A DNA stretch of 64,000 nucleotides from Deltaproteobacteria bacterium (GTDB lineage: Bacteria; Desulfobacterota; Syntrophia; Syntrophales; UBA2210), in the NCBI GenBank assembly GCA_019313385.1, contig JAFDBG010000002.1, forward strand, positions 4,202 to 68,201, read 5' to 3'. Within the stretch, counting starts at the first letter, position 1; every line of letters begins with the position of its first letter. The position numbers and the translations under genes were made by a program. Shown here in pieces: positions 8,206 to 64,000 of this stretch. The notes beneath the pieces are model-generated. The model saw only the letters and a list, made by a program, of their open reading frames with translations. It made no database searches and had not been told where the DNA came from.

Positions 8206-9456
8206 TTGGACAGAATTATCATACGTGGCGGGAGAAGGCTTGAAGGTGATGTCCGCGTGAGTGGAGCAAAAAATGCCGCTCTTCCTGTTATAGTGTCTTC
8301 GCTTCTCACAGATGGGTGGAATACCTTCCATAACGTTCCCGATCTTGCGGATATCAGAACAATAAAGCGGCTCCTGGCCGGTTTTGGTGTCGAGATTGAA
8401 GGGGACAAGACGCTCAGGATCAACGCGGGAGAAATCACAAGTTGCGAGGCCCCCTACGATCTTGTCAGAACGATGCGGGCCTCGATTCTTGTTCTCGGAC
8501 CGCTCGTGGCAAGGATGGGCAGGGCGCGCGTTTCTCTTCCGGGTGGATGCGCCATAGGCGCCAGACCTGTGAATCTGCACCTGAAGGCCCTGCAGTCTAT
8601 GGGAGCGGAGATAGATCTTAAGGATGGGTATGTTGAAGCCAGAGCGCCAAAACTAAAGGGAGCCACCATATATTTTGATATATCAACGGTAACCGGCACC
8701 GAAAATATCATGATGGCCGCCTCACTGGCTGAGGGAATAACGATCCTTGAAAATGCGGCAAGGGAACCGGAGATCGTAAATCTTGCCGACGTGCTGAAAG
8801 GCATGGGTGCAAAAATCAGGGGCGCGGGAACCGATATAGTGGAGATTGAGGGAGTAAAGACCCTCCATCCGGTTGAAGCGGATATAATTCCCGACAGGAT
8901 TGAAGCGGGAACATATATGATCGCAGCGGGGCTCACCGGCGGGGATGTAAATATCCTCGGGTGTGTACCGGCTCATCTTGATGCTGTGACAGCCAGATTA
9001 AGAGAGACGGGCATGGAGATTACTCCGATACCCGGAGGCCTCCGGGTTGTGGGTAACCGGAATATAACCAGTGTGGATGCAAAAACCCTCCCCTATCCCG
9101 GCTTTCCCACGGATCTTCAGGCGCAGATGATGGTGCTGATGTCCATGGGTGGAGGTGTCAGCGTTATTAAAGAAACTGTGTTTGAAAACAGATTTATGCA
9201 CGTAAATGAGCTTACAAGAATGGGGGCGGATATAACTGTTGACGGTAACAGCGCCATTGTCAGAGGTGTTTCCGGGCTACGTGGAGCTCCGGTGATGGCG
9301 ACAGACCTGAGAGCTTCCGCTTCTCTCATACTTGCCGGTCTGGTGGCCGAAGACGCGACTGAGATCTTTAGAATCTATCACATAGACAGGGGATATGAAC
9401 ATATCGAAGAAAAGCTTTCTTCGATAGGGGCTGATATAAGGAGGGTTAGAGGCTGA
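8206..9456 (+). CDS. murA: UDP-N-acetylglucosamine 1-carboxyvinyltransferase
   Basis: [27 protein letters not shown] and active-site loop [17 protein letters not shown] 8206 (GGAG about 9 nt upstream) is preferred over TTG 8182. Confidence 0.95.
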
Positions 9457-9457
9457 A

Positions 9458-10771
9458 GTGAAGGTTATAAGCACAGATGAAAGCTCATTCGCGGGGGAAC
9501 TCGATCGCATAAAAAACAGACGGAATTCTGTCCCCCAGGCCGTGGAGGATGTTGTATCCAAAATCCTGGATGACGTGGTGGCAAGGGGAGATGATGCACT
9601 CTTTGAGTACACGGAAAAGTTTGACGGCATTCTCCTCAACCCCCGTACAGTCGAGGTCTCTCCGGACGAGATAGAAACGGCATTTCGTGAAGTCAACGCC
9701 GATGATGTGGATATTCTTAAGTTCTCTGCCGCAAGAATAGAAGATTTTCACAGGAGACAGATTGAAGAGTCATGGTCTTATTCCGATGACGAGGGGATAG
9801 AGCTCGGGCAAATATTGCGCCCCCTTGAACGTGTCGGCATATATGCGCCGGGTGGTCTCGCGACGTATCCCTCCACGGTATTGATGGCTGCGGTGCCTGC
9901 CGGGATCGCGGGTGTCGGAGAAATCATACTTGTCACCCCCGCGAGAAATGGGTACATAAATCCCCTGATGCTCGTTGCCGCGAGACTGTCTGGTGTGGAC
10001 CGGATATTCAAAATAGGCGGCGCTCAGGCTATAGCCGCGCTTGCCTGCGGCACAGAGTCCATTCCGCGGGTGGACAAAATAGTCGGCCCCGGGAATATCT
10101 ACGTGGCCACCGCAAAGAGGATGGTGTATGGGAAAACAGGGATAGACATGATAGCCGGCCCCAGTGAGATAGTTATCATTTCCGATGGCATGATAGAACC
10201 GGAAGTGGTGGCCGCCGATCTCCTGTCTCAGGCCGAGCATGACCCGATGGCCGGCGCTATTCTCCTTACACCAGACAGAGAATTTGCCTGCAAGGTTGCC
10301 GCCGAAGCCCAACTGAAGGCAAAAGAGCTTGAGAGCCCGGTGGCTGCGGAGGCACTGGAAAATTATGGCGCGGCAATTATAACCGCGGATATGGATGAGG
10401 CTGTAGATATCGCGAACAGCCTCGCGCCGGAGCACCTTGAGTTGGCAGTGGAAAAACCCAAAGCTCTCCTGAGCAGGATAACCAACGCGGGAGCGGTATT
10501 CCTCGGGCAAAATACCCCGGAAGTTCTGGGGGATTATATCGCGGGCCCGAACCATATACTCCCCACCGGGGGAACGGCGAGATTTTCTTCACCACTTGGG
10601 GTCTACGATTTCATCAAAAGGATAAATGTAATATCCTTTTCCGGCAAAGCACTCGAGAAACACGGGTTAAAGGCTGCCGGATTTGCAGACATTGAAGGTC
10701 TTGAAGCGCACAAGAGATCAATTATGATACGCTTAAGAGGTAGAACGTCAAACAAAACAAAAAATTCTTGA
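9458..10771 (+). CDS. hisD: Histidinol dehydrogenase
   Basis: GTG start after AAGGAGGG; motifs LLSQAEHDP and GDYIAGPNHILPTGGTARF; 437 aa. Confidence 0.95.
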   Translation: MKVISTDESSFAGELDRIKNRRNSVPQAVEDVVSKILDDVVARGDDALFEYTEKFDGILLNPRTVEVSPDEIETAFREVNADDVDILKFSAARIEDFHRRQIEESWSYSDDEGIELGQILRPLERVGIYAPGGLATYPSTVLMAAVPAGIAGVGEIILVTPARNGYINPLMLVAARLSGVDRIFKIGGAQAIAALACGTESIPRVDKIVGPGNIYVATAKRMVYGKTGIDMIAGPSEIVIISDGMIEPEVVAADLLSQAEHDPMAGAILLTPDREFACKVAAEAQLKAKELESPVAAEALENYGAAIITADMDEAVDIANSLAPEHLELAVEKPKALLSRITNAGAVFLGQNTPEVLGDYIAGPNHILPTGGTARFSSPLGVYDFIKRINVISFSGKALEKHGLKAAGFADIEGLEAHKRSIMIRLRGRTSNKTKNS

Positions 10772-44164: not shown

Positions 44165-45586
44165 TCACGCAAGCCCCGCTATGTGTTTCATTCCTTCCTC
44201 TATAAAAACAAATTCTTCCTCAGTTATCGTCCTCAGATCGAGGAGGACTTGGTCTTCGAATATCCTCGCAATTATGGGAACTTCCAGCTTCCTTAATCTT
44301 CTTTCCATCCTGCTAGTCGGGATGCCGCGAGAGCTTACAGTCACGACAACGGTGGGAATCTCCTGCGTGGGAAGCGATCCGCCACCGGCCATGGAATGTT
44401 CTTTCATAATGGAGAAAGTCAGGTCCTTAAGGGATAATTTCTCCAGCAGATCCAACAGCCTGCGCGCCCTTTTTTCGACATCGGCGACCGGTTCCGTCAG
44501 CGAGCGTAAGACCCTTACATCGCACACCGCCCTGTCGAGATCCAGATAATGCATCATAGTTGCCTCAAGGGCCGCAAGGGTCAATTTATCTATTCTCAGG
44601 GCACGATTGAGAGGGTTTTTCTTTATCCTGTCCAGTATCGTCTTTTTGCCTAGGATTATCCCGGCCTGCGGCCCCCCGAGGAGCTTGTCGCCGCTGAATG
44701 TCACCACATCCACACCCGTCTTCAAAACCTCCTGAACCGTCGGTTCCCTTTCAAAACCATATTTATCCAGCTGCACAAAGCATCCGCTCCCCAGATCATT
44801 CATTACAGGAATGTCTTTCTTTTTGCCAAGTGCCACCAGCTCGTCCAGGCCTATCTCATCAGTAAAGCCAAGCACCTTGAAGTTACTTGTATGAACCTTA
44901 AGAATCAACCCGGTATTGCCGCACACCGCATTATCGTAGTCCGAAAAATGCGTGCGGTTGGTGGTACCCACCTCTCTGAGAATGGCTCCGCTTTTTTCCA
45001 TAACCTCGGGAATACGAAACGCTCCCCCTATCTCAATAAGCTCTCCCCTCGAAACGATCGCCTCTTTTCCCTCCGACAGGGCATTGAGGGTAAGGAGGAC
45101 AGCGGCGGCGTTATTGTTGACGATTATGGCATCTTCCGCTCCCGATACGCAGCAGAGTATGTCCTTCACATGATCGTATCTTATCCCGCGTTCCCCCTTG
45201 TCAAGGTTGAACTCAAGGTTTGAATAGCCTTCGCTGACATCAATAATCCTTTTCAGGGCCTCCCCGCAGAGAGGGGCCCTCCCCAGATTGGTATGCAGGA
45301 TGATTCCGGTGGCATTCACCACACGGCGGAGGCTGTAGTCATGAAGGGCAAGCAACCTTTTTTGCACCTCCCTCGCAGCCCTGTCAGGGGAAAGAGGACC
45401 GGGAGTTTTTCCACCGCCTTTTTCCGAATCCAATATATCCTTCCTCATCTCTTCTACAACCTGGCGGCATTTTTCCACCACGATATCCCTTGAAACACCT
45501 TTAAACGCGTCATCATTTTCGAGAATGAGGAGCACCTCGTCAATCTTCGGAAGGGTTTTCAGTAACTCTCTGATCTTGTCATCCAT
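44165..45586 (-). CDS. selA: L-seryl-tRNA(Sec) selenium transferase
   Basis: Start moved to ATG 45586 (MDDKIRELLKTLPKIDEVL). PLP-lysine context TFSGDKLLGGPQAGII. Confidence 0.92.
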   Translation of the reverse strand: MDDKIRELLKTLPKIDEVLLILENDDAFKGVSRDIVVEKCRQVVEEMRKDILDSEKGGGKTPGPLSPDRAAREVQKRLLALHDYSLRRVVNATGIILHTNLGRAPLCGEALKRIIDVSEGYSNLEFNLDKGERGIRYDHVKDILCCVSGAEDAIIVNNNAAAVLLTLNALSEGKEAIVSRGELIEIGGAFRIPEVMEKSGAILREVGTTNRTHFSDYDNAVCGNTGLILKVHTSNFKVLGFTDEIGLDELVALGKKKDIPVMNDLGSGCFVQLDKYGFEREPTVQEVLKTGVDVVTFSGDKLLGGPQAGIILGKKTILDRIKKNPLNRALRIDKLTLAALEATMMHYLDLDRAVCDVRVLRSLTEPVADVEKRARRLLDLLEKLSLKDLTFSIMKEHSMAGGGSLPTQEIPTVVVTVSSRGIPTSRMERRLRKLEVPIIARIFEDQVLLDLRTITEEEFVFIEEGMKHIAGLA

Positions 45587-45594
45587 TTTATTCC

Positions 45595-46833
45595 CTATCT
45601 CCCCAGACAGAAGTCGCGGAAATTGTTGACTGCGGTAAAGAATTCCCGCATCATTATGACCCAATAATATCTGCCACGGTCCGTAAGGTAAAAAGTGCCG
45701 CGCTTGTAGCGCAACCCTCCGACCAGCATAAAGGCGGCTATCTCTCTCCAGAGATAGCCGATGCTCCCGCCACCATATTTCTTCCTCAAGAAGGAGACAT
45801 CCAGTTTAAGACCAAACAGCTTCATCAGAAAGTCGTAGCGCGCCTGTTGCTGGAGTGTAAAATCACGCGCCGCCATCAATGGAAGTTCTCCCCTGTCCAG
45901 CATCTCAATATATCGAGGTATGTCGAAGGTGTTCGCGTAACTTCTACCATCCATGTATCCGATAGAACCGCTGCCCAGACCGGCATATTCGTCATAATCC
46001 ACTATATACTCATCAACCATAGTTCCTCTCCGGGAAAAACACCACGCCGAGGAAAAACGGTAGTAAGGGGCAAGTTTTTTGGAAATCAGTTGATAAAACC
46101 TCTTTTCCTTCCTGTAATCAACTATCCCCAGCGTTCCCTCCACCTTGCTGCGCGTGGATTCCGAGACCATCAGGGGATAATAGGTCACTTGATCAACACC
46201 TGTATCGATCAGAATATCCAGGTCTCTAACCAGAATTTCTTCGGTCTGGACAGGAAAGTTAAAGATCATATCGGCATTCAAGGTATCGAACTGCCCCGAT
46301 ATCTCTGCAATTCTTCCGGCAATTGTGTCGCCGCTCCCATATTTCTCATATCTGCCCATTGCCTTCAAAAGCCCGTCATCGAAACTCTGTACCCCAACCG
46401 AAAGCCTGTTAACACCGATTTTCCTGAGGATATCAACATTCTCCTGTGTGAGATGGTTGGGATTGGTCTCCACTGAAATCTCCCGGATGTTGAAACAATC
46501 CGCTGCCAGTAGCAGGGTTTTCTCCAGTTCATCCATCATTATTGTCGGTGTTCCCCCGCCCACATACACACTGGTGAAGTTATAATCTTTATCCCTGTAA
46601 AACCGTATCTCTTTTCTGAGGGCGGCGTGATACCTTCGACAGAGATCTTTATCGAGCACAATCCTGTTAAATGAGCAGTATGGACACAGGCTTTCACAGA
46701 ATGGAATATGGAGATAAAGAAGCCTTCCATGATTTGCATTCCCCTGTGGGAGAAATGCACCCATCCTTTCCTCAAACCGCATGGCCCGGGAGAATTCCCG
46801 TTTTGTCGCTGCTGTTATAATCCTGTCTATCAA
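45595..46833 (-). CDS. Radical SAM protein of the HemN/HemW (oxygen-independent coproporphyrinogen oxidase-like) family
   Basis: CxxxCxxC in LYLHIPFCESLCPYCSFN; 412 aa. Its stop lies 8 nt before the selA start. Confidence 0.85.
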   Translation of the reverse strand: MIDRIITAATKREFSRAMRFEERMGAFLPQGNANHGRLLYLHIPFCESLCPYCSFNRIVLDKDLCRRYHAALRKEIRFYRDKDYNFTSVYVGGGTPTIMMDELEKTLLLAADCFNIREISVETNPNHLTQENVDILRKIGVNRLSVGVQSFDDGLLKAMGRYEKYGSGDTIAGRIAEISGQFDTLNADMIFNFPVQTEEILVRDLDILIDTGVDQVTYYPLMVSESTRSKVEGTLGIVDYRKEKRFYQLISKKLAPYYRFSSAWCFSRRGTMVDEYIVDYDEYAGLGSGSIGYMDGRSYANTFDIPRYIEMLDRGELPLMAARDFTLQQQARYDFLMKLFGLKLDVSFLRKKYGGGSIGYLWREIAAFMLVGGLRYKRGTFYLTDRGRYYWVIMMREFFTAVNNFRDFCLGR

Positions 46834-54923: not shown

Positions 54924-55058
54924 TGATGGTGTCGTAAAAAATCCCAAAACTGTCATACCGGGCTTGATCCGGTATCCAGAAACTGTTGAATTTACTGGAT
55001 TCCGGCTTCCGCCGGGATGACGAAAAGTGGCGTTTTCTGACTTTCTACGAATGCGTCA
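54924..55058 (+). repeat. Repeat family E (double-hairpin element)
   Basis: GTCATACCGGGCTTGATCCGGTATCCAG and CTGGATTCCGGCTTCCGCCGGGATGACG are inverted halves. Translation gives LDSGFRRDDEKWRFLTFYE. Confidence 0.75.
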
Positions 55059-55075
55059 GGAATGGTAGTTTTGAA

Positions 55076-55954
55076 TTGATTATTTATGTCAAGCTCCTGC
55101 TAACCGCTATTTTCTGGGGTGGAACCTTTATAGCCGCGCGGGTCGTCGCGCAAACTGTCGGCCCTTTCAGCGCCTCTTTCCTGAGATTCGCTATTGCATC
55201 CCTTTTTCTTGTCTTTATCACTATAAGAATGGAAGGCAAAATTCCCTGGCTGAAAAAACACCAGATATTGCCTGTCATACTTCTCGGACTGACGGGTGTA
55301 TTCGCATATAATTTCTTCTTTTTCTCCGGACTGAAAACGATTACGGCAAGCCGCGCTTCTATTATTATAGCAATGAACCCGATTTTTATATCTATTTTTG
55401 CTTACACCTTTTTCAAGGAAAAACTGACCGGGATAAATGTGGTCGGGATTTTACTCTGCGTATCCGGCGCGATTATCGTCATCTCAAGGGGAAACCCCCT
55501 GGGAATAATTCAAGGGGGCCTTGGGGCGGGAGAACTTCACATTCTTGGATGCGTCGCGAGCTGGGTCTTATATTCCCTGATTGGGAAAAGCGCCATGAAG
55601 GACATGTCTCCCCTGGTGACCGTCACATACTCCTGCCTTGCCGGAGGTATCCTGCTTTTATTTCCTGCCTGGATAGAGGGGATGCCCCGGGATATCACGG
55701 GATACAGCGTGGCGGACTGGGCAGGCATCTTTTATCTCGGATTTTTCGGCTCTGTTCTCGGGTTTACCTGGTATTATCAGGGAATAAAGAAGATCGGAGC
55801 ATCGAAGGCATCTGTGTTTATCAACTTTGTTCCGGTAAGCGCGGTCATACTCGCCTGTCTGCTCCTGAAGGAAAAACTCGACCTGTCCCTCATCACAGGC
55901 GCCATCATGGTAATCTGCGGGGCATATCTGGCTAACAAGAAACATAGGACATGA
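55076..55954 (+). CDS. EamA/DMT-family transporter
   Basis: Ten hydrophobic segments forming two EamA-like halves. Start provisionally TTG 55076, because ORF-track ATG 54986 lies inside repeat E. Confidence 0.78.
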   Translation: MIIYVKLLLTAIFWGGTFIAARVVAQTVGPFSASFLRFAIASLFLVFITIRMEGKIPWLKKHQILPVILLGLTGVFAYNFFFFSGLKTITASRASIIIAMNPIFISIFAYTFFKEKLTGINVVGILLCVSGAIIVISRGNPLGIIQGGLGAGELHILGCVASWVLYSLIGKSAMKDMSPLVTVTYSCLAGGILLLFPAWIEGMPRDITGYSVADWAGIFYLGFFGSVLGFTWYYQGIKKIGASKASVFINFVPVSAVILACLLLKEKLDLSLITGAIMVICGAYLANKKHRT

Positions 55955-56164: not shown

Positions 56165-56812
56165 CTATGCTTCCGCGATAGATTTAGCAAACCTTCTTCC
56201 CAATTCCGAAGCCTTCATCAGTATCTCTTCCTCTTTTTTGACCGCGCCCCTGTCAAAGATTTTTAATACCGGAAGCTCTTCAAAAATCTCGTAGCCCAAT
56301 GCCTGCAATGGAAGACGCATGGCTTCGATCGTAAATCCCATGTCTTTTTTATCTTGTTGCTCGCATACGGCCACAATAACCGCTTTTCTATTTTGACCGG
56401 CCAGACGACTCGTCCAGCCTCTCGGGCGGTTATCATCAAATTCATACAGGCAGTACAGACGATCGATAAATGCCTTCATCCACGCGGTGATATTATAGTT
56501 ATGGGTTGGAGACAGGAGGATGAGTCCCCGGGCCTGTATAATTTTCGGATAGAGAAGATTCATGCCGTCATTCAGGCCCGTACATATTTTATCTTTTCTA
56601 CATCTTTCACATCCGATACACGGTTGGAAATAATAGTCTCGCAGGTGTACGCTTTCTGTAGGAACATCCTCTCCTTGAACGCCCTTGAGAATATGTTTCA
56701 AAAGCACGTCGGAGTTCCCGTTAATTCTTGGGCTGCCGCTGATTCCCAGAATTTTCTGTTCCGGCAATATATCCACCGGCACTTTTTTCAACAAATTATC
56801 ATTTGCAGTCAT
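56165..56812 (-). CDS. Iron-sulfur flavoprotein (Isf-like NADPH-dependent FMN reductase family)
   Basis: GISGSPRINGNSD flavodoxin-like start and compact Cys motif CIGCERCRKDKIC (CX2CX2CX5C). Confidence 0.8.
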   Translation of the reverse strand: MTANDNLLKKVPVDILPEQKILGISGSPRINGNSDVLLKHILKGVQGEDVPTESVHLRDYYFQPCIGCERCRKDKICTGLNDGMNLLYPKIIQARGLILLSPTHNYNITAWMKAFIDRLYCLYEFDDNRPRGWTSRLAGQNRKAVIVAVCEQQDKKDMGFTIEAMRLPLQALGYEIFEELPVLKIFDRGAVKKEEEILMKASELGRRFAKSIAEA

Positions 56813-57197: not shown

Positions 57198-57226
57198 TTG
57201 ACAATGGCAAACCCAGTCGCTATATT
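57198..57226 (+). promoter_or_regulatory. Candidate sigma70 promoter of the arsR operon
   Basis: TTGACA (57198-57203), 17-nt spacer, TATATT (57221-57226). It lies 28 nt upstream of the arsR ATG. Confidence 0.6.
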
Positions 57227-57254
57227 CCCAAAATGCGATATGGAGGTAGTGATT

Positions 57255-57599
57255 ATGAAGATATTTCTGAAGGTGATGAAGGCCCTGTCCGATCCGAGTC
57301 GTGTCAAAATAATGAAAATGTTGCAAGAACGGGTCATGTGCGTTTGTGAAATCAAGGAGGCACTTGGCATTGCCCAGTCCACCGCCAGCAAGCATTTGAA
57401 AATTCTTGAAGCCGCCGGACTGATTACCTTTCATAAAGAAGGACTGTGGGTTAATTACACATTGTCAGACGGTGGCAATAGTCCCTATGCGGCCAGTCTG
57501 ATCGGCAACCTGAAACACTGGCTGGATGATGATCCTGAGGTTATTGAGTTGGTAAAACTACTGCCGCAAATCCGGAGGGAAAATATCTGCGGAGGTTAG
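57255..57599 (+). CDS. arsR: ArsR/SmtB-family metalloregulator
   Basis: ATG 57255 after GGAGG. VMCVCEIKEALGIAQSTASKHLKILEAAGLI gives a CVC metalloid site followed by a wHTH. Confidence 0.9.
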   Translation: MKIFLKVMKALSDPSRVKIMKMLQERVMCVCEIKEALGIAQSTASKHLKILEAAGLITFHKEGLWVNYTLSDGGNSPYAASLIGNLKHWLDDDPEVIELVKLLPQIRRENICGG

Positions 57600-57715
57600 T
57601 GTAATTTTTTTTGCCATTCATAAATCGCTATATCGCTAAGCAGGAAATCAAAGGACGGCACTCACTACCTGGAGAGTTTCCAGCAGATCGAAACAGATAT
57701 TAAAGGATATTGTCA

Positions 57716-58888
57716 ATGAAAGAACGAATCAAACTATTGCTGATCGCCGGTGTTTTTTTAGCGGCCTATTACATCCCATGGAGCCATCCATTAATACGCC
57801 AGTCAGGTCTTGAGGCATTCATGATGCTTCAGGAATACGCACGGCAACATGTGCTGACCTGCCTGATTCCGGCCTTCTTCATTGCCGGAGCCATCGCGGT
57901 CTTTGTGTCGCAGGGATCAGTCCTTAAATATTTTGGTGCCCGGGCCAGCAAGATCCTGTCCTATTCCGTGGCCTCCGTGTCCGGTTCAATTCTAGCGGTA
58001 TGCTCCTGCACTGTGCTGCCGCTTTTTGCCGGCATTTACACGCGGGGCGCCGGTATCGGCCCGGCAACGGCTTTTCTTTATTCCGGACCCGCCATCAACA
58101 TCCTGGCCATCACACTCACGGCAAAGGTCCTGGGCTGGCAGATGGGACTTGCCCGAGCTATCGGCGCGATATTCTTTGCCATCGTTACCGGTCTGCTTAT
58201 GGCCCTGATTTTCCGGAAAGACGACGCGGCGCGTACTTCAGGACAGATATATGTGCCGGAGGCCAACGCCGATCATCGCTCCCTGCTGCAAGACAGTCTG
58301 TATCTCTTGACTATGGTGCTGATTCTGGTGTTCGCCGCCTTTGCCAGGCCTGCTTCCGATGCGACCGGTTTATGGCCGATGATCTTTGCGTATAAATGGT
58401 ACATCACCACCGCTCTGCTGGGTATCCTGGCTTTCATGCTCAAGGCCTGGTTTACAAAGAATGAATGTGTCAATTGGGTGGAATCTACCTGGGGTTTCAT
58501 GAAACAGATATTTCCGCTTTTAATCGGAGGTGTGCTGGTGGCCGGCTTTTTGCTGGGGAGACCGGGACATCCGGCCCTGATACCGGAACAGTATGTCCAA
58601 TCACTATTGGGTGGAAACTCGATATGGGCCAATCTGTTTGCCTCGGTCGCGGGCGCGCTGATGTATTTTGCCACCCTGACTGAAATTCCGATCCTCCAGG
58701 GGCTAATAGGCTCAGGCATGGGCAAGGGGCCTGCTCTGGCCCTGCTCCTGGCCGGTCCCGCCCTGTCACTGCCGAACATGCTGGTGATCGGGAGCGTGAT
58801 GGGCGTCAAAAAAACGGTTACCTTCTGCGGTATCATTATTATTATGTCCACGATTGCGGGTCTAATTTACGGCAGTTTTGCCGGATAA
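57716..58888 (+). CDS. COG0701/PF03773 permease (ArsP-related family)
   Basis: Polytopic, with ILAVCSCTVLPLFAG (CSC motif). This type commonly follows arsR. Confidence 0.8.
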   Translation: MKERIKLLLIAGVFLAAYYIPWSHPLIRQSGLEAFMMLQEYARQHVLTCLIPAFFIAGAIAVFVSQGSVLKYFGARASKILSYSVASVSGSILAVCSCTVLPLFAGIYTRGAGIGPATAFLYSGPAINILAITLTAKVLGWQMGLARAIGAIFFAIVTGLLMALIFRKDDAARTSGQIYVPEANADHRSLLQDSLYLLTMVLILVFAAFARPASDATGLWPMIFAYKWYITTALLGILAFMLKAWFTKNECVNWVESTWGFMKQIFPLLIGGVLVAGFLLGRPGHPALIPEQYVQSLLGGNSIWANLFASVAGALMYFATLTEIPILQGLIGSGMGKGPALALLLAGPALSLPNMLVIGSVMGVKKTVTFCGIIIIMSTIAGLIYGSFAG

Positions 58889-58926
58889 AAGTAACCGAAA
58901 AACTTTTTGAAAAGGAGATAAAAAGA

Positions 58927-59160
58927 ATGGAGATCAAAGTATTAGGACCTGGTTGTGCACGGTGTCAACAGACGGAACAAATCGTCAGGGAGGCGGTAGC
59001 GGAGGCCGGTGTGGAAGCTCAGATTGAGAAGATCACCGATATCATGAAGATCGCCGGTTACGGAGTATTCGGCACGCCGGCGGTGGTTATCGATGGCGAG
59101 GTAAAGAGCGTCGGCAAAATCCCGGGTAAAGAAGAAATCAAAACCTGGATTGGGAAATAG
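58927..59160 (+). CDS. Thioredoxin-fold protein (redox-active disulfide protein 2 type)
   Basis: 77 aa; MEIKVLGPGCARCQ (CxxC). Confidence 0.85.
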   Translation: MEIKVLGPGCARCQQTEQIVREAVAEAGVEAQIEKITDIMKIAGYGVFGTPAVVIDGEVKSVGKIPGKEEIKTWIGK

Positions 59161-59188
59161 GGAACAAGACAAAAAGAAGGATATCCAT

Positions 59189-59584
59189 ATGAAATATCGT
59201 TTATTATTGGCACTGGTTGGAGGCGTCCTGTTACTGGCACTGACCACGGGGACCCTCCCGGCTGCTGAGCAGACTACGGACTTTGGCAGTGTGCCCGTCA
59301 AAGGAATGGTCACCATGATCGACTTGGGCGCTGACAAATGCATCCCCTGCAAGATGATGGCCCCGATCCTGGAAAAGATGGGGAAAGTTTATGAAGGAAG
59401 AGCTGCCATCGTTTTCATCGATGTGTGGAAAAACCGGGAGCAGGCCGAGCGGTTCGGCATACGGCTCATCCCCACGCAGATTTTTTTCAACTCCGAGGGG
59501 CAAGAGGTCTATCGCCACGTGGGGTTTATGGGGGAAGAGGATATCATCGCGCAGCTTGAAAAAATGGGAGTAAAAAGAGGATAG
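59189..59584 (+). CDS. Secreted/periplasmic thioredoxin
   Basis: Signal peptide MKYRLLLALVGGVLLLALTTGTLPAAE and active site GADKCIPCKMMAP. Confidence 0.85.
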   Translation: MKYRLLLALVGGVLLLALTTGTLPAAEQTTDFGSVPVKGMVTMIDLGADKCIPCKMMAPILEKMGKVYEGRAAIVFIDVWKNREQAERFGIRLIPTQIFFNSEGQEVYRHVGFMGEEDIIAQLEKMGVKRG

Positions 59585-59591
59585 ATTTCAG

Positions 59592-60317
59592 GTGTTTGAT
59601 ACAGTTTTCTTAACGATTAATCAGTGGATCGTTGGCGGGACGGCTATTGCCGCGCTGGGTTGTTTTTTGTGGGGGATGGTAAGCGTCCTTTTCAGTCCAT
59701 GCCATCTGGCATCGATTCCCCTCGTTGTCGCCTACGTAGGCGGTCAGGAAAGGGCTATCCATCCAAAACAGGCCGCCGTGTATTCGGTATCGTTTACCGC
59801 CGGCCTGTTTATCACCATCGCACTGATCGGGATCATTTGCGCCTTGCTGGGCCGGATGCTGGGAGACGTGGGTAACTACTGGCAGATCCTGATCGGCGCC
59901 ATATTGATCTGGGTGGCCCTGGGCATGCTCGGTGTGGAAAAATGCTCCATGTCGGGAAGTCTGCTTTACCGCCTCAATTTAGGAGGGATATTCGGCGCGT
60001 TTGTGCTGGGTCTGGCTTACGGCGTGCTCTCCGGATCATGCACATTCGGATTCATCGCTCCGATGCTTGCTATCATTATTGTCCAGCAGAAAGTCGCGAC
60101 AGGAATACTGTTTATCCTGCTTTTTGCGGTGGGACATTGTCTGCCAATCGCGGTTGCCGGAAGCTCGGCGGCCGCCGTCAGAAAACTGATGGAGAACAGC
60201 ACGTGGCAGGGGACGGGCACCTGGTTCCGCAAGGGCGCGGGGGTGCTGATCGGCCTGCTGGGGCTCTACTTTATAATCAACCCGCTCGCGGGCTTAATCA
60301 ATGCAATCGTATCGTAG
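59592..60317 (+). CDS. ccdA: CcdA/DsbD-family transmembrane thiol:disulfide electron transporter
   Basis: GTG start. Membrane-embedded Cys in [12 protein letters not shown] and [14 protein letters not shown]. Confidence 0.88.
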
Positions 60318-60325
60318 GAGGTAAG

Positions 60326-61414
60326 GTGACGTCTCAAACAAAACAACTTTCATTTCTGGACCGCTTTTTGACCCTGTGGATCTTTATGGCCATGTTCGTC
60401 GGCGTCGGGGGCGGATACTTCTACCCGGACATCCGCAGTGTGATTAACCAGTTTCAAGTTGGCACCACCAATATCCCCATTGCCATCGGTCTGATACTGA
60501 TGATGTACCCACCCCTTGCTAAGGTCAAATATGAGCAACTGGGACAGGTTTTTCGTAATTTTAAAGTTCTGTTGCTTTCCCTGGTCCAGAACTGGATTAT
60601 CGGTCCCATCCTGATGTTTCTTCTGGCGATTACCTTTCTCTCGGGTCATCATGAATATATGGTTGGCCTGATTCTGATCGGGCTGGCCCGTTGCATTGCA
60701 ATGGTGATCGTCTGGAACGACCTGGCCGACGGCGATACGGAATACTGCGCGGGGCTGGTGGCGTTTAATTCCATCTTTCAGGTCCTCTTCTTTTCTATCT
60801 ATGCTTACATATTCATTACCGTCATCCCTCAATGGCTTGGACTAAAAGGCGCGGTGGTAAACATCTCCATCGGTCAGATTGCTGAGAGCGTTTTTATCTA
60901 TCTGGGCATCCCCTTTATTGCCGGCATCATCTCCCGGGTGATCGGCCTGAAGATAAAGGGCAGGCAGTGGTATGAAAAAAAGTTTATTCCCATGATCAGC
61001 CCGATTACATTGATCGCGCTGTTGTTTACTATTCTGGTGATGTTTTCACTTAAAGGCGAATATATCGTCCAGTTGCCGCTGGATGTCATTCGGGTGGCAA
61101 TCCCGCTTTGTGTCTATTTTGTGGTCATGTTCTTTGTGTCATTCTTTCTGTCGATGAAAGCTGGGGCCACTTACGAACAATCTGCAACACTGAGTTTTAC
61201 TGCGGCGTCCAACAATTTCGAGCTGGCTATCGCCGTGGCGGTGGCGGTGTTCGGCATCGATTCGGGGGTGGCATTTGCCGCAGTAATCGGCCCTCTGGTA
61301 GAAGTGCCTGTTTTAATTGGTCTGGTAAACGTGGCACTGTGGTTCAGAAAAAAATATTTTTCATATGCAGTGGAAACTCCCACAGGAATTTGCCATGTGT
61401 CCTGCAAGCCCTGA
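60326..61414 (+). CDS. acr3: Arsenite efflux permease Acr3
   Basis: GTG 60326 after AGGAGG gives [19 protein letters not shown]. Conserved [13 protein letters not shown]. The ORF-track start at 59942 is a spurious extension across ccdA. Confidence 0.93.
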
Positions 61415-61483
61415 AAGGTAATGAGGTGTTTCAGATATTATTTGATATATACACCTTGAAGTATAAAAAGGATTTATGAGATT

Positions 61484-62002
61484 ATGCCTATCCGAGACCG
61501 ATCACATTGGCGACATGCCTTCTGGCAAATACCTGCAATTATTTTATTGGCCGGTCTTGTTGGAATCTGTGTCAATTATCTCCGCCCTGATTCTATCCCG
61601 ATAGTCGGCGACTGGTCTGCTAAAACAAGTATGGCTGCGGCCACTCAAGATAAGCTGTCTATACCACTTGCAGGGGCCGCAAATCTGTTTTCAGAGCAGC
61701 TCGCGGTGTTCATTGATGCCCGTGACGAACAGGAGTATGCGGACGGTCATATCAGGGGGGCGTTAAGCCTGGCATGGGACGACGCAAGCGAGCGCTTTCC
61801 GGAAATTGCCGGGGATATCCCCTCCGGTACGATGATTATCACTTATTGTGATGGAGAAGGATGTCACATGAGCTACGACCTGGCGGTCTTCCTGCGGGAT
61901 AAGGGGTTCGAAAATGTCTGGGAACTGGCAAACGGCTGGACGGTCTGGCAGGACGCCAATTTGCCTGTTGAAGAAGGAAATGCTGTCTCCCCCCGAGGAT
62001 AA
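61484..62002 (+). CDS. Membrane-anchored rhodanese-domain protein
   Basis: Basic N-terminus plus one TM, then IDARDEQEYADGHIRGA and active-site loop ITYCDGEGCHMS. Confidence 0.85.
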   Translation: MPIRDRSHWRHAFWQIPAIILLAGLVGICVNYLRPDSIPIVGDWSAKTSMAAATQDKLSIPLAGAANLFSEQLAVFIDARDEQEYADGHIRGALSLAWDDASERFPEIAGDIPSGTMIITYCDGEGCHMSYDLAVFLRDKGFENVWELANGWTVWQDANLPVEEGNAVSPRG

Positions 62003-62008
62003 AAACCC

Positions 62009-62497
62009 ATGGAAGAAAAAAGCTGCTCTTATAGCCAAGATGCGAAACAGCATCCCCAAATAATGTATGCAGGCATTTTATACCATGCCGCACGATGGAT
62101 ACTCGGGATTGTATTCATTTATGCCAGCCTCCATAAAATCCTCTACCCGGCGGCTTTTGCGGAGGCAGTCTATCGCTATCAGATCCTGCCGGACTGGCTG
62201 GTAAACCTTACCGCCCTTGTGTTGCCCTGGCTGGAGCTTTTCCTGGGCGTCTTTCTCATCATCGGACTCTGGATGCCCGGAGCGGTTGTAATAAGCAATC
62301 TCCTCTTTATAATATTCATGAGCGCCCTGTCGTATAATATGGCGCGGGGACTGGATATAAGTTGCGGGTGTTTTTCCACCTCGCCCACGGCAGGTGCGGC
62401 AGACATCTGGACTGTTTTGCGAGATGGGATGCTTCTGATCGTTTCTCTTTACCTTTTGTTTGCTACTTTTGCACGAACTGTGCGCGTAAGGGATTAA
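62009..62497 (+). CDS. MauE/DoxX-family membrane protein
   Basis: Four hydrophobic segments. ARWILGIVFIYASLHKI and a CGC pair (ISCGCF) fit the MauE type as I recall it. Confidence 0.72.
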   Translation: MEEKSCSYSQDAKQHPQIMYAGILYHAARWILGIVFIYASLHKILYPAAFAEAVYRYQILPDWLVNLTALVLPWLELFLGVFLIIGLWMPGAVVISNLLFIIFMSALSYNMARGLDISCGCFSTSPTAGAADIWTVLRDGMLLIVSLYLLFATFARTVRVRD

Positions 62498-62629: not shown

Positions 62630-63745
62630 TTAATATAAAAACAGATCCACAAGATAGCCTGCCACGATAGCCACCAGAAAAACATTCAGAATGAAGGCGA
62701 AGATCAGTTTCTTCTTGAGCATGGAAGTGAGTATAATGATCTCCGGGATGCTCGCCCCCGCCCCGCCTATGATGAGGGCCAGAACCGTTCCCAGCCCCAT
62801 CCCTTTTCCAACGAGCGCGGCACTGATCGGGATAATGGTTTCCGCCCGGATGTACATCGGCACCCCGATGACCGCCGCGATCGGGATGGACCAGGGGTTG
62901 CCCGGCCCCGCTAGTTGTACGACTAGGTCCTGTGGAAAAAACCCGTAGATTAAGGCTCCGATTGCGGCGCCGAGGAGAAGGTACCAGAAGACTCCCTTGA
63001 ATGTGTCGACGGCGGACAGGGATGCCCTTTTGATTTTTGTTTTGAAAGGAATCCGCGCCGCGCCGCCTCCTTCGTCTACATCGAAGTTGACAGAACAGCA
63101 GGGCGATTGAACCGCCGGTTGATCGGTTGTCCCTGTTTCCACGGGACAGCAACCTCCTGCGGCCTGAAGGGTCGGAAACGTGATCAAGGTCACGGGCGGA
63201 GCAACTTCGGAGGCGCAGCAACCGGTCTCTGCAAAGCCTGTGTTCACGGGACCAATCCCCGGCTTCGCCTTCTGGTCGCAGCAGGAAACCTCCAGACCGA
63301 CCAAGGCCTTAATCTGGTTTTGCAGTCCCATTTGCGACAACAGGGCTGCCGTCGCCATGGAGCCGAAGAAGGTGATAACGACATAAAAGGCCGTCACTTT
63401 GTAGCCAAAAAGCGAGAGTAGCAACGCGATGATGACCGGGTTCAAGACCGGCGAGGAAAAGAGAAACGCCATCACGGGGCCGAAAGGAACACCCCCCTTG
63501 AGCAGGCCGGCAGTGATTGGAACGGTGGAACAGGAGCAGAAAGGTGTGAGCGCCCCCAGGCCCGAACCCAGGAGATATTGCACCACGGTCAGCTTGTTGG
63601 ACAGAAAATCCCGGATGCGAGACGGCGGGAGATATTCCGTTAGCAGTCCGATGAGAAAGGAAACTGCGACAAAGATCAGAATGAGTTCACCGGCAATGAT
63701 CAGAAAAAATTTACCGGCGACCAAGACACTATTCAGTTCAAACAT
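62630..63745 (-). CDS. COG0701/PF03773 permease with Cys-Cys-rich central loop
   Basis: LTPFCSCSTVPITAG motif. The ~85-aa central loop contains SCC, GCC, GCC and PCC. Confidence 0.8.
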   Translation of the reverse strand: MFELNSVLVAGKFFLIIAGELILIFVAVSFLIGLLTEYLPPSRIRDFLSNKLTVVQYLLGSGLGALTPFCSCSTVPITAGLLKGGVPFGPVMAFLFSSPVLNPVIIALLLSLFGYKVTAFYVVITFFGSMATAALLSQMGLQNQIKALVGLEVSCCDQKAKPGIGPVNTGFAETGCCASEVAPPVTLITFPTLQAAGGCCPVETGTTDQPAVQSPCCSVNFDVDEGGGAARIPFKTKIKRASLSAVDTFKGVFWYLLLGAAIGALIYGFFPQDLVVQLAGPGNPWSIPIAAVIGVPMYIRAETIIPISAALVGKGMGLGTVLALIIGGAGASIPEIIILTSMLKKKLIFAFILNVFLVAIVAGYLVDLFLY

Positions 63746-63757
63746 AGTTTGACCTCT

Positions 63758-64000
63758 TTATTTGTTGACTATGTCAACATTATATCCGTTTATAATCTTT
63801 TTATCCTGTGCCGTCTGAAGAAAAGATTTAAGGCTGATGATCAGAATTTTCCGCATGGCCGGATCCATTGCCGCGAGTATCACCAGCATCTTATTTTTGA
63901 GCTGGTCCTCAATCCGGTGTAAAAGAGATTGGCCGTCTTCAGTTAAAGTAACACAACACACTCTTCCGTCTTGTTGATCCTGTTCGCGATGAGCCAGGCC
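63758..64000 (-). CDS. MarR-family transcriptional regulator, C-terminal part (5' end outside the window)
   Basis: The frame is open to the window edge. REQDQQDGRVCCVTLTEDGQSLL matches the MarR wing/helix region. Confidence 0.65.
   Translation of the reverse strand, partial: GLAHREQDQQDGRVCCVTLTEDGQSLLHRIEDQLKNKMLVILAAMDPAMRKILIISLKSFLQTAQDKKIINGYNVDIVNK

Follow-up and report, generated by a model that had tools for sequence, protein, structure and literature searches.

An ArsR-headed operon of Desulfobacterota that sets metal(loid) efflux genes beside a predicted outer-face thiol relay

The 64,000-nucleotide window analyzed here (contig JAFDBG010000002.1, positions 4,202 to 68,201, from a Syntrophales member of the Desulfobacterota) carries a compact eight-gene operon headed by an ArsR/SmtB metalloregulator and encoding two membrane permeases, one of them the arsenite pump Acr3, together with two thioredoxin-fold proteins, a CcdA-like membrane protein, a membrane-anchored rhodanese, and a MauE/DoxX-type protein. 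We consider it probable, if by no means assured, that this ArsR-controlled operon joins the efflux of arsenite, and probably of other thiol-seeking metal(loid)s, to a dedicated thiol relay on the outer face of the membrane. Gene content and order, motifs, conservation of the linkage, and natural gene fusions are established here. All component families are known, and two sub-assemblies, ArsR-ArsP-ArsE and the TsoB fusion, have already been named. We rate the cluster as a widespread, coherent, and experimentally tractable accessory pathway of the DsbD/CcdA type that is linked to metal stress.

Gene starts were refined from ribosome-binding sites and start codons read in the sequence, and families were assigned by Pfam and NCBIfam scans of the operon proteins. 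The operon and its control region comprise the following features.

57198..57226, plus strand: sigma-70-type promoter, TTGACA-17-TATATT, an 11/12 match and the top match of the scanned region
57221..57245, plus strand: imperfect dyad ATATTCC-N6-GCGATAT, a putative operator for ArsR that extends over the -10 element and transcription start
57255..57599, plus strand: ArsR/SmtB metalloregulator, 114 amino acids (HTH_5, 65 bits; NF033788, 88 bits against a cutoff of 55)
57716..58888, plus strand: permease of the ArsP_1 family (COG0701; PF03773, 254 bits)
58927..59160, plus strand: ArsE-type thioredoxin-fold protein, 77 amino acids, motif CARC (Thioredoxin_3; TIGR00412 "MTH895/ArsE," 106 bits against 62)
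59189..59584, plus strand: thioredoxin with predicted secretion, 131 amino acids, active site CIPC (C51, C54) (Pfam Thioredoxin)
59592..60317, plus strand: CcdA-like thiol-disulfide transporter of the DsbD_TM family (PF02683, 55.7 bits against 27.1)
60326..61414, plus strand: Acr3 arsenite efflux permease, 362 amino acids, GTG start (TIGR00832, 460.6 bits against 282.8)
61484..62002, plus strand: signal-anchored single-domain rhodanese (PF00581, 60 bits)
62009..62497, plus strand: MauE/DoxX-type membrane protein (PF07291, 101 bits against 27)

The eight genes, co-directional on the plus strand between 57255 and 62497, form one compact unit with intergenic gaps of 116, 38, 28, 7, 8, 69, and 6 nucleotides, in that order. 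No terminator-like hairpin was found in any of these gaps, and an Rfam scan of the operon returned no RNA element. A first-pass annotation made from the sequence alone had described eight co-directional genes with gaps of 6 to 116 nucleotides behind a near-consensus promoter and had assigned each gene to a family. Open reading frames (ORFs) and refined gaps bear out that arrangement, the promoter lies directly upstream of arsR, Pfam and NCBIfam upheld every family call, and the CVC and CIPC sites, the CxxC of the 77-residue protein (CARC), and the basic rhodanese N terminus MPIRDRSHWRH are all present. The position from which that annotation had counted, 57198, does not hold as a gene start; it marks the -35 hexamer with an upstream in-frame TTG, and arsR begins at 57255.

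Promoter-like matches in the scanned region numbered 8, against 8.5 expected from shuffles, so that their total is not enriched; the 11/12 site sits exactly upstream of arsR. The same TTGACA-17-TATATT architecture precedes the cluster-head arsR in distant genomes, and a near-consensus promoter was present in 35 of the 66 arsR upstream regions examined. In many related loci, a dyad equivalent to the putative operator stands at the corresponding position; locus L084 has CTATATTC-N8-GAATATAG, and L016 has TATATTCC-N7-CGATATA. Promoter and dyad together make a phylogenetic footprint that is consistent with an autoregulated operator to which ArsR would bind. Separate ArsR-Acr3 units, seen in L027, L031, L041, L059, L066, and L072, have their own near-consensus promoter and a different, highly conserved dyad, TATATTTCGCCATAYAACGAAATGG; the difference suggests two ArsR paralogs with distinct operators per neighborhood.

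Conservation of the cluster was assessed around the rhodanese. The database held 470 relatives of this protein, at least 457 species-representative genomes encode it, and by their record titles the carriers are almost all Syntrophales, Desulfobacterales, Desulfobulbales, and related Desulfobacterota. One relative (P0001) is 99% identical to the window rhodanese; the closest genome among the matches listed is a Syntrophaceae metagenome-assembled genome (MAG) whose rhodanese is 85% identical. From the genomes encoding a rhodanese of this type, the 80 loci closest to that of the window were taken for a neighborhood census, in which genes were scored with home-made profiles (built from window and locus ORFs), domain envelopes, and per-ORF best hits. 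The census contigs are fragmentary MAG contigs, and denominators differ per gene, 35 being the number of fully flanked loci.

The first-pass annotation had allowed that the linkage might be conserved nowhere else; the whole unit recurs in other genomes. The identical eight-gene order is kept in genomes whose rhodanese is only 64 to 85% identical to that of the window, and loci at 64 to 66% identity keep even the convergent ArsP_1 and MarR genes that lie downstream. MauE is within 3 kb of the rhodanese in 53 of 55 loci, CcdA is upstream of it in 45/60, and the secreted thioredoxin is upstream in 44/57. Also upstream, on the same strand, are ArsR (34/44), ArsP_1 (29/44), and the ArsE-type Thioredoxin_3 protein (36/44). 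Acr3 is less regularly placed: it occurs within 10 kb of the rhodanese in 22 of the 35 fully flanked loci, but only 5 of 60 loci have it placed directly between the CcdA and rhodanese genes. Loci with a CDF metal pump within 10 kb (17/35) are about as frequent as those with Acr3, and 24 of the 26 fully flanked loci with CcdA carry one or the other. The Acr3 proteins form two clades, 78 to 92% and ∼33% identical to the window protein, both scoring above the TIGR00832 cutoff, and embedded genes are mixed with ArsR-adjacent ones across these clades; Acr3 thus behaves as a frequent, repeatedly recruited, movable passenger. The fixed core is thioredoxin-CcdA-rhodanese-MauE behind ArsR-ArsP_1-ArsE, and Acr3 is not its organizing element. 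The proposal of the first-pass annotation that Acr3 efflux is coupled to a periplasmic thiol system stands in part. The thiol genes appear to be co-regulated with efflux of thiophilic metal(loid)s, but the association is not specific to Acr3, as the CDF counts show.

Further genes accompany the core in some loci: an LMWP-type arsC in 10/35, DsbC in 8/35, a DGC protein (PF08859) in 18/44 (e.g., L006, 3493-3891), and a cysteine-rich protein of ∼175 residues annotated as "putative Fe-S cluster" (PF04060) in 16/44, often just before the rhodanese (e.g., L007, 4176-4703). The DGC and PF04060 proteins are absent from the window. Bins from outside the Desulfobacterota also carry the module, namely L059 (labelled Ignavibacteriota), L022 (Lentimicrobiaceae), and L035 (Alphaproteobacteria); in L059, MauE and rhodanese are fused, and the Acr3 is 84.5% identical to that of the window. 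Carriage in these bins could reflect horizontal transfer or binning error.

Redox cysteines are conserved across all operon components, as the homolog counts show. The ArsR has the alpha-3 pair C29/C31 (motif VMCVCEI) and a C-terminal C112; among cluster-associated ArsRs, C29 is kept in 73/78 and C31 in 69/78. This pair is of the As(III)-binding type, and a response to As(III) is predicted. A persulfide sensor of the BigR/SqrR type was considered and rejected, since the BigR score of 34.5 bits falls short of the 155-bit cutoff and the cysteines are those of the alpha-3 CVC pair. In the ArsP_1 permease, a membrane CSC motif (C96/C98) is retained as CxC in 50/55 homologs; the protein matched no ArsP equivalog model in NCBIfam and fell below the cutoffs of the SO_0444 (Cu/Zn) and SaoE equivalogs. 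The ArsE-type protein has MTH895 (1ILO) as its closest solved structure (E = 1.7e-16), and, being without a hydrophobic segment, it is predicted to be cytoplasmic. Acr3 has a membrane cysteine, Cys123 (RCIAMV), that is kept in 37/42 homologs.

The components of the putative relay are similarly marked. The 131-residue thioredoxin begins with a hydrophobic segment and a type I signal peptide, MKYR-LLLALVGGVLLLALTTGTLPA|AEQ, with cleavage at LPA|AEQ, from which heuristics predict export, and it matches the C-terminal thioredoxin domains of DsbD and TsoB. In the CcdA-like protein, the canonical cysteine pair is represented by C37 (SPC, first transmembrane helix), kept in 59/60 cluster-associated homologs, and C150 (fourth helix), kept in 60/60; three extra cysteines, C83, C118, and C183, are kept in 59 to 60 of 60. 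A comparison with solved structures, CcdA included, gave no sequence-level match. These features may define a distinct five-cysteine subfamily of DsbD_TM proteins, possibly one that binds metal. A housekeeping role in cytochrome c maturation was rejected, since no ccs or res genes are adjacent in any annotated locus. MauE carries a CGC motif (C119, C121) in the loop preceding its last transmembrane helix, with CxC kept in 60/61 homologs, and ends in the tail RTVRVRD. No mau context (mauA, mauB, or mauD) was found in the window or in annotated related loci.

Residue conservation in the rhodanese was read from a 35-sequence alignment. All sequences share Y121-C122-D123-G124 and C127, and at least 90% have E125; in the window protein, the loop reads Y-C-D-G-E-G-C-H-M-S, an acidic C-D-G-E-x-C with C-x4-C spacing. 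An AlphaFold2 model, with a predicted local distance difference test score mostly of 89 to 96 over residues ∼60 to 160, places C122 and C127 in the loop that joins strand 117-121 to helix 129-139, the canonical rhodanese cradle, and shows a single N-terminal helix at residues 7 to 33. Foldseek matched the model to rhodaneses at a probability of 1.0, in keeping with a rhodanese fold that has a cysteine at the catalytic position; the nearest structural matches are uncharacterized single-domain rhodaneses, YgaP, PspE, and Sud, at identities of 29% or less. The C-D-G-E-x-C loop has no Arg, Lys, or Thr, as a cationic or polar loop for anionic donors would, and none of the 35 homologs has the Arg at +6 of an HC(X)5R signature. 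As judged from the alignment, an acidic loop lacking the basic and polar residues of thiosulfate sulfurtransferases weakens the case for classic sulfane-sulfur transfer. A cation or neutral As(OH)3 could also be accommodated by the Cys2-Asp/Glu loop, in agreement with the CDF=MauE fusions described below.

Topology was approached through hydropathy and charge heuristics and through the logic of gene fusions, and these predict that the secreted thioredoxin, the rhodanese domain, and the CxC loop of MauE all lie outside the cytoplasm. Across the 35 homologs, the net charge flanking the rhodanese anchor is +1.7 on the N side and -0.5 on the C side, and the N side is the more basic in 30/35. The first-pass annotation had placed the rhodanese outside by the positive-inside rule and had proposed a prediction of topology and signal peptides; the flank charges agree with that placement as a prediction, and the analysis supported both the thioredoxin signal peptide and the rhodanese anchor. 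In fusions of a signal-peptide thioredoxin to DsbD_TM (P0271-P0274), the thioredoxin domain is joined to the outer end of the first CcdA helix. MauE=rhodanese fusions (P0167, P0170, P0290, P0291, and P0294; in P0290, five hydrophobic segments precede the rhodanese domain) imply that the CxC loop and the rhodanese share one side of the membrane. A CDF=MauE fusion occurs in 9/55 loci (L018, L019, L023, L027, L028, L050, and L054 among them), and L008 encodes, at 8492-10000, a 502-residue Cation_efflux+ZT_dimer+MauE protein; these fusions physically link metal efflux to the MauE/rhodanese pair. An artificial rhodanese+CcdA+thioredoxin concatenate, used as a query, recovered no triple fusion and only two-domain fusions, with selenocysteine (Sec)-containing ORFs probably truncated in gene calls.

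In DsbD itself, the membrane domain has a periplasmic acceptor domain before it and a thioredoxin domain after it. From this analogy and from the fusions, we infer that electrons would pass from a cytoplasmic thioredoxin to C37/C150 of the CcdA-like protein, then to C51/C54 of the secreted thioredoxin, and finally to C122/C127 of the rhodanese. A counterpart of this order is TsoB, listed as a "rhodanese/DsbD fusion-like selenoprotein" with a U-x4-U motif, belonging to the Tso operon (NF045694; Haft & Tolstoy 2025, cited in PMC13188914). The 572-position NCBIfam model of TsoB was matched collinearly by three window proteins, the rhodanese at model positions 61-160, CcdA at 183-395, and the thioredoxin at 477-571. 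The TsoB chain runs rhodanese, DsbD-type membrane domain, thioredoxin, a layout that mirrors DsbD, with U-x4-U where the window has C-x4-C, and the presence of Sec at both TsoB positions suggests that the pair equivalent to C122/C127 is redox active. Unlike the window, where three separate genes use cysteine, TsoB is one Sec-containing chain, and the window proteins score 37, 47, and 21 bits against its cutoff of 805. The Tso regulator TsoR is likewise of the ArsR/SmtB type, but the window ArsR is far below the TsoR cutoff of 115. We know of no MauE, ArsP_1, ArsE, or Acr3 among the Tso components. The window also encodes SelA (L-seryl-tRNA selenium transferase; 44165-45664, minus strand, 515 bits), so the host uses selenocysteine, yet its own version of the relay uses cysteine, in contrast to the TsoB selenoprotein.

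In the mechanism that we favor, the inducer, the substrate, the topology, the direction and path of electron flow, and the final chemistry are all read from sequence. As(III) or a similar soft metal(loid) would bind the CVC pair of ArsR and release the repressor from the dyad overlapping the -10 element, so that all eight genes would be transcribed. Arsenite would be exported by Acr3, and a second thiol-reactive species may be exported by the ArsP_1 permease with the help of the small cytoplasmic ArsE thioredoxin. The CcdA-like protein would move reducing equivalents across the membrane from cytoplasmic thioredoxin to the secreted CIPC thioredoxin, which in turn would hold C122/C127 of the rhodanese reduced, with rhodanese and the CxC-bearing MauE acting as a unit. 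That unit might then either maintain envelope cysteines or bind or sulfur-modify the metal(loid) delivered by the pumps.

Several observations weigh against this mechanism. Acr3 is embedded in few loci (5/60) and usually has its own ArsR, so that co-localization could reflect a shared regulon or island and not mechanistic coupling. Rhodanese and MauE occur without CcdA in 9/35 fully flanked loci. The CcdA homolog is divergent and, with its three additional invariant cysteines, might itself bind or move metal. The acidic C-D-G-E-x-C loop, as aligned, is unlike known sulfurtransferase loops. The census behind the linkage counts covers only the 80 closest loci, seen through home-made profiles on MAG contigs.

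The alternative that best survives is an island of independent modules (ArsR-ArsP-ArsE, thioredoxin-CcdA, Acr3, and rhodanese-MauE) merged behind one promoter by rearrangement, in which the relay would serve general disulfide reduction or isomerization in the envelope with no specific tie to exported arsenite. We regard this as rather unlikely, although the highly variable position of Acr3, usually an ArsR-Acr3 unit with its own promoter, speaks for it, as do the loci with DsbC and those in which rhodanese and MauE stand alone (e.g., L055, L058, L062, L064, L083, and L086). It sits poorly with the proximity of Acr3, 63% against less than 2% by chance, the latter being an estimate (20-kb window, 1 to 3 acr3 copies per multimegabase genome) and not a computed control. 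Nor would it lead one to expect recruitment of two unrelated Acr3 clades as well as CDF, fusion of CDF to MauE in 9/55 loci, a CVC ArsR heading the cluster in 34/44, or the lack of ResB/CcsA cytochrome c maturation genes beside CcdA in annotated loci.

Thioredoxin-dependent release of sulfide by single-domain rhodaneses is established chemistry (GlpE and 3-MST), and the first-pass annotation had suggested a route through sulfane sulfur. C122 would form a persulfide from polysulfide or thiosulfate, and C127 or the secreted thioredoxin would release sulfide or pass the sulfur to As(III). The products outside the cell would be thioarsenic species or metal sulfides, and CcdA would supply the electrons. 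The rhodanese fold with a cysteine at the catalytic position favors such chemistry, as do structural neighbors that include periplasmic PspE and the polysulfide-sulfur transferase Sud, the sulfidic, anoxic settings of the host lineage (from record titles), and the finding that Pseudodesulfovibrio mercurii produced putative thioarsenicals from As(III) as well as As(V) (bioRxiv 10.1101/2022.10.17.512643). We nonetheless hold the route to be improbable: the invariant acidic loop offers no Arg, Lys, or Thr to anionic sulfur donors, a CDF cation pump is as frequent a partner of the module as Acr3 is, and no genes that would generate a sulfur donor were seen in the cluster. A bolder proposal, and to us an equally improbable one, is that rhodanese and MauE constitute a new periplasmic enzyme with private CcdA-thioredoxin recycling that chemically converts exported arsenite and soft metals, for example, by thiolation that yields thioarsenic species or by local release of sulfide. 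If true, anaerobes would possess an "export-and-neutralise" pathway and a biological source of thioarsenate.

Acr2-type arsenate reductases share the rhodanese/Cdc25 fold. It is very improbable that the rhodanese, with its C-x4-C pair, stands in for ArsC by reducing arsenate or thioarsenate and being recycled by thioredoxin, and this reading was rejected because of the motif, the predicted topology, and the presence of arsC in related loci. In its favor, a nucleophile and resolving cysteine recycled by thioredoxin would follow the logic of thioredoxin-coupled ArsC, and no arsC lies in the checked parts of the window. Against it, the loop is acidic and lacks the CX5R Arg, and the predicted location of the domain is the periplasm, in which arsenate reduction brings no detoxification benefit. 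LMWP ArsC is found together with the rhodanese in 10/35 loci and is thus not replaced by it, and the rhodanese also occurs without any Acr3.

The absence of arsC, arsA, arsD, and arsM that the first-pass annotation had noted was borne out for the operon, in which none of these domains was found, and the LMWPc-ArsC profile had no match in the whole 64-kb window. ArsC-family Pfam domains were likewise missing from the operon, from 20 of the ∼25 upstream ORFs at 33 to 56 kb, and from ten small ORFs of the first 31 kb, the larger ORFs of 0 to 33 kb not being scanned. The scanned upstream ORFs are housekeeping genes (rho, prfA, kdtA, selA, def, rimP, rbfA, and pil genes). The lack of arsC is a trait of this lineage and not of the system, as LMWP-type arsC occurs in the clusters of relatives.

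By analogy of function, the nearest known counterpart of the operon is ScsB/ScsC/ScsD. Scs is a copper-induced envelope thiol system built on ScsB and ScsC (PMC10907172, PMC3322552). Both are accessory envelope thiol systems for metal stress in which a DsbD-family protein feeds dedicated thioredoxin-fold partners, which in Scs also bind metal. Scs differs in its copper-responsive envelope-stress regulation (ArsR in the window), in its partners (ScsC and ScsD where the window has rhodanese and MauE), and in the metal(loid) concerned. The membrane protein of the window is CcdA-sized, has three extra cysteines, and lacks the periplasmic domains of ScsB, and efflux pumps are part of the operon. 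General Pfam and NCBIfam scans of the operon returned no Scs-named family; the likeness is one of function only.

The pairing of a DsbD_TM protein that has one cysteine per half with a neighboring secreted CxxC thioredoxin is shared with CcdA/ResA, DsbD/CcmG, and SoxV/SoxW. In contrast to those systems, the window pair was not beside cytochrome c maturation or sox genes in any locus examined, and its conserved neighbor is the C-x4-C rhodanese. A membrane protein of the DoxX/MauE superfamily acting with a rhodanese-family thiol protein in stress defense has a parallel in the membrane-associated oxidoreductase complex DoxX-SseA-SodA of Mycobacterium tuberculosis (PMC6930017). SseA is a cytoplasmic two-domain sulfurtransferase, whereas the window rhodanese is a single-domain, anchored protein with a predicted external location. 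No SodA was seen, and the MauE of the window has an invariant CxC.

The head of the operon resembles "operon C" of P. mercurii ND132, an As(III)- and As(V)-inducible unit of ArsR5, ArsP, ArsE, and a DGC-motif protein (bioRxiv 10.1101/2022.10.17.512643). Both begin with ArsR, a PF03773 permease, and a PF13192 thioredoxin, but operon C has only four genes, and its DGC protein has no counterpart in the window. With canonical arsR-acr3-arsC operons the window shares a CVC ArsR and a bona fide Acr3; it differs in that its operon lacks an arsenate reductase and has five additional genes for thiol-redox or membrane proteins. The first-pass annotation had not known the combination as a characterized system, and our searches agree. 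Full-text literature searches (rhodanese with MauE/DoxX, CcdA, or arsenite/Acr3) found no paper describing the unfused ArsR-ArsP-ArsE-thioredoxin-CcdA-(Acr3)-rhodanese-MauE cluster or assigning it a function, the primary Tso and SAO papers lying outside the search. Matches to Fusibacter and Thioalkalivibrio were set aside as unrelated mentions of rhodanese.

Two features adjoin the operon downstream.

62630..63745, minus strand: second ArsP_1 permease, convergent with the operon and outside it (PF03773, 189 bits)
Starting at 63758, near the window edge: MarR-type regulator gene, adjoining the second ArsP_1 permease

The second permease has a loop with four CC pairs (SCCDQ, GCCAS, GCCPV, and PCCSV). 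The same convergent ArsP_1 and MarR genes also follow MauE in L001, L003, L010, L067, and L088, a recurrence that marks the pair as a conserved neighbor with its own regulator and not as a member of the operon. On the other side, divergent from the operon promoter, lies a flavoprotein gene of the FMN_red family (56165-56812, minus strand) whose product resembles iron-sulfur flavoproteins and has a CxxCxxCxxxxxC cluster; an FMN_red gene is also present at the edge of L007. A reading of this gene as ArsH was rejected, as no ArsH model in NCBIfam matched. Farther upstream, the longest ORF of an EamA transporter (54986-55954) begins with MNLLDSGFRRDDEKWRFLTFYECV, a segment that resembles noncoding or repeat read-through, and the true start probably lies further downstream.

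Resistance to arsenic and soft metals is usually told as "reduce and pump out," and what happens in the periplasm of anaerobes rich in cysteine-containing envelope proteins has been largely ignored. The cluster indicates a metal(loid)-regulated thiol system outside the membrane that is tied to pumps of the Acr3, CDF, and ArsP types, and it supplies a cysteine-only counterpart of the TsoB selenoprotein. It offers a testable function for three poorly understood families, namely the MauE proteins not tied to methylamine metabolism, the membrane rhodaneses with a C-x4-C pair, and the five-cysteine CcdA subfamily, and a cultured carrier is available in Desulfobacter vibrioformis DSM 8776 (L063). 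For sulfate reducers, whose production of thioarsenic species is unexplained, the operon is a candidate locus.

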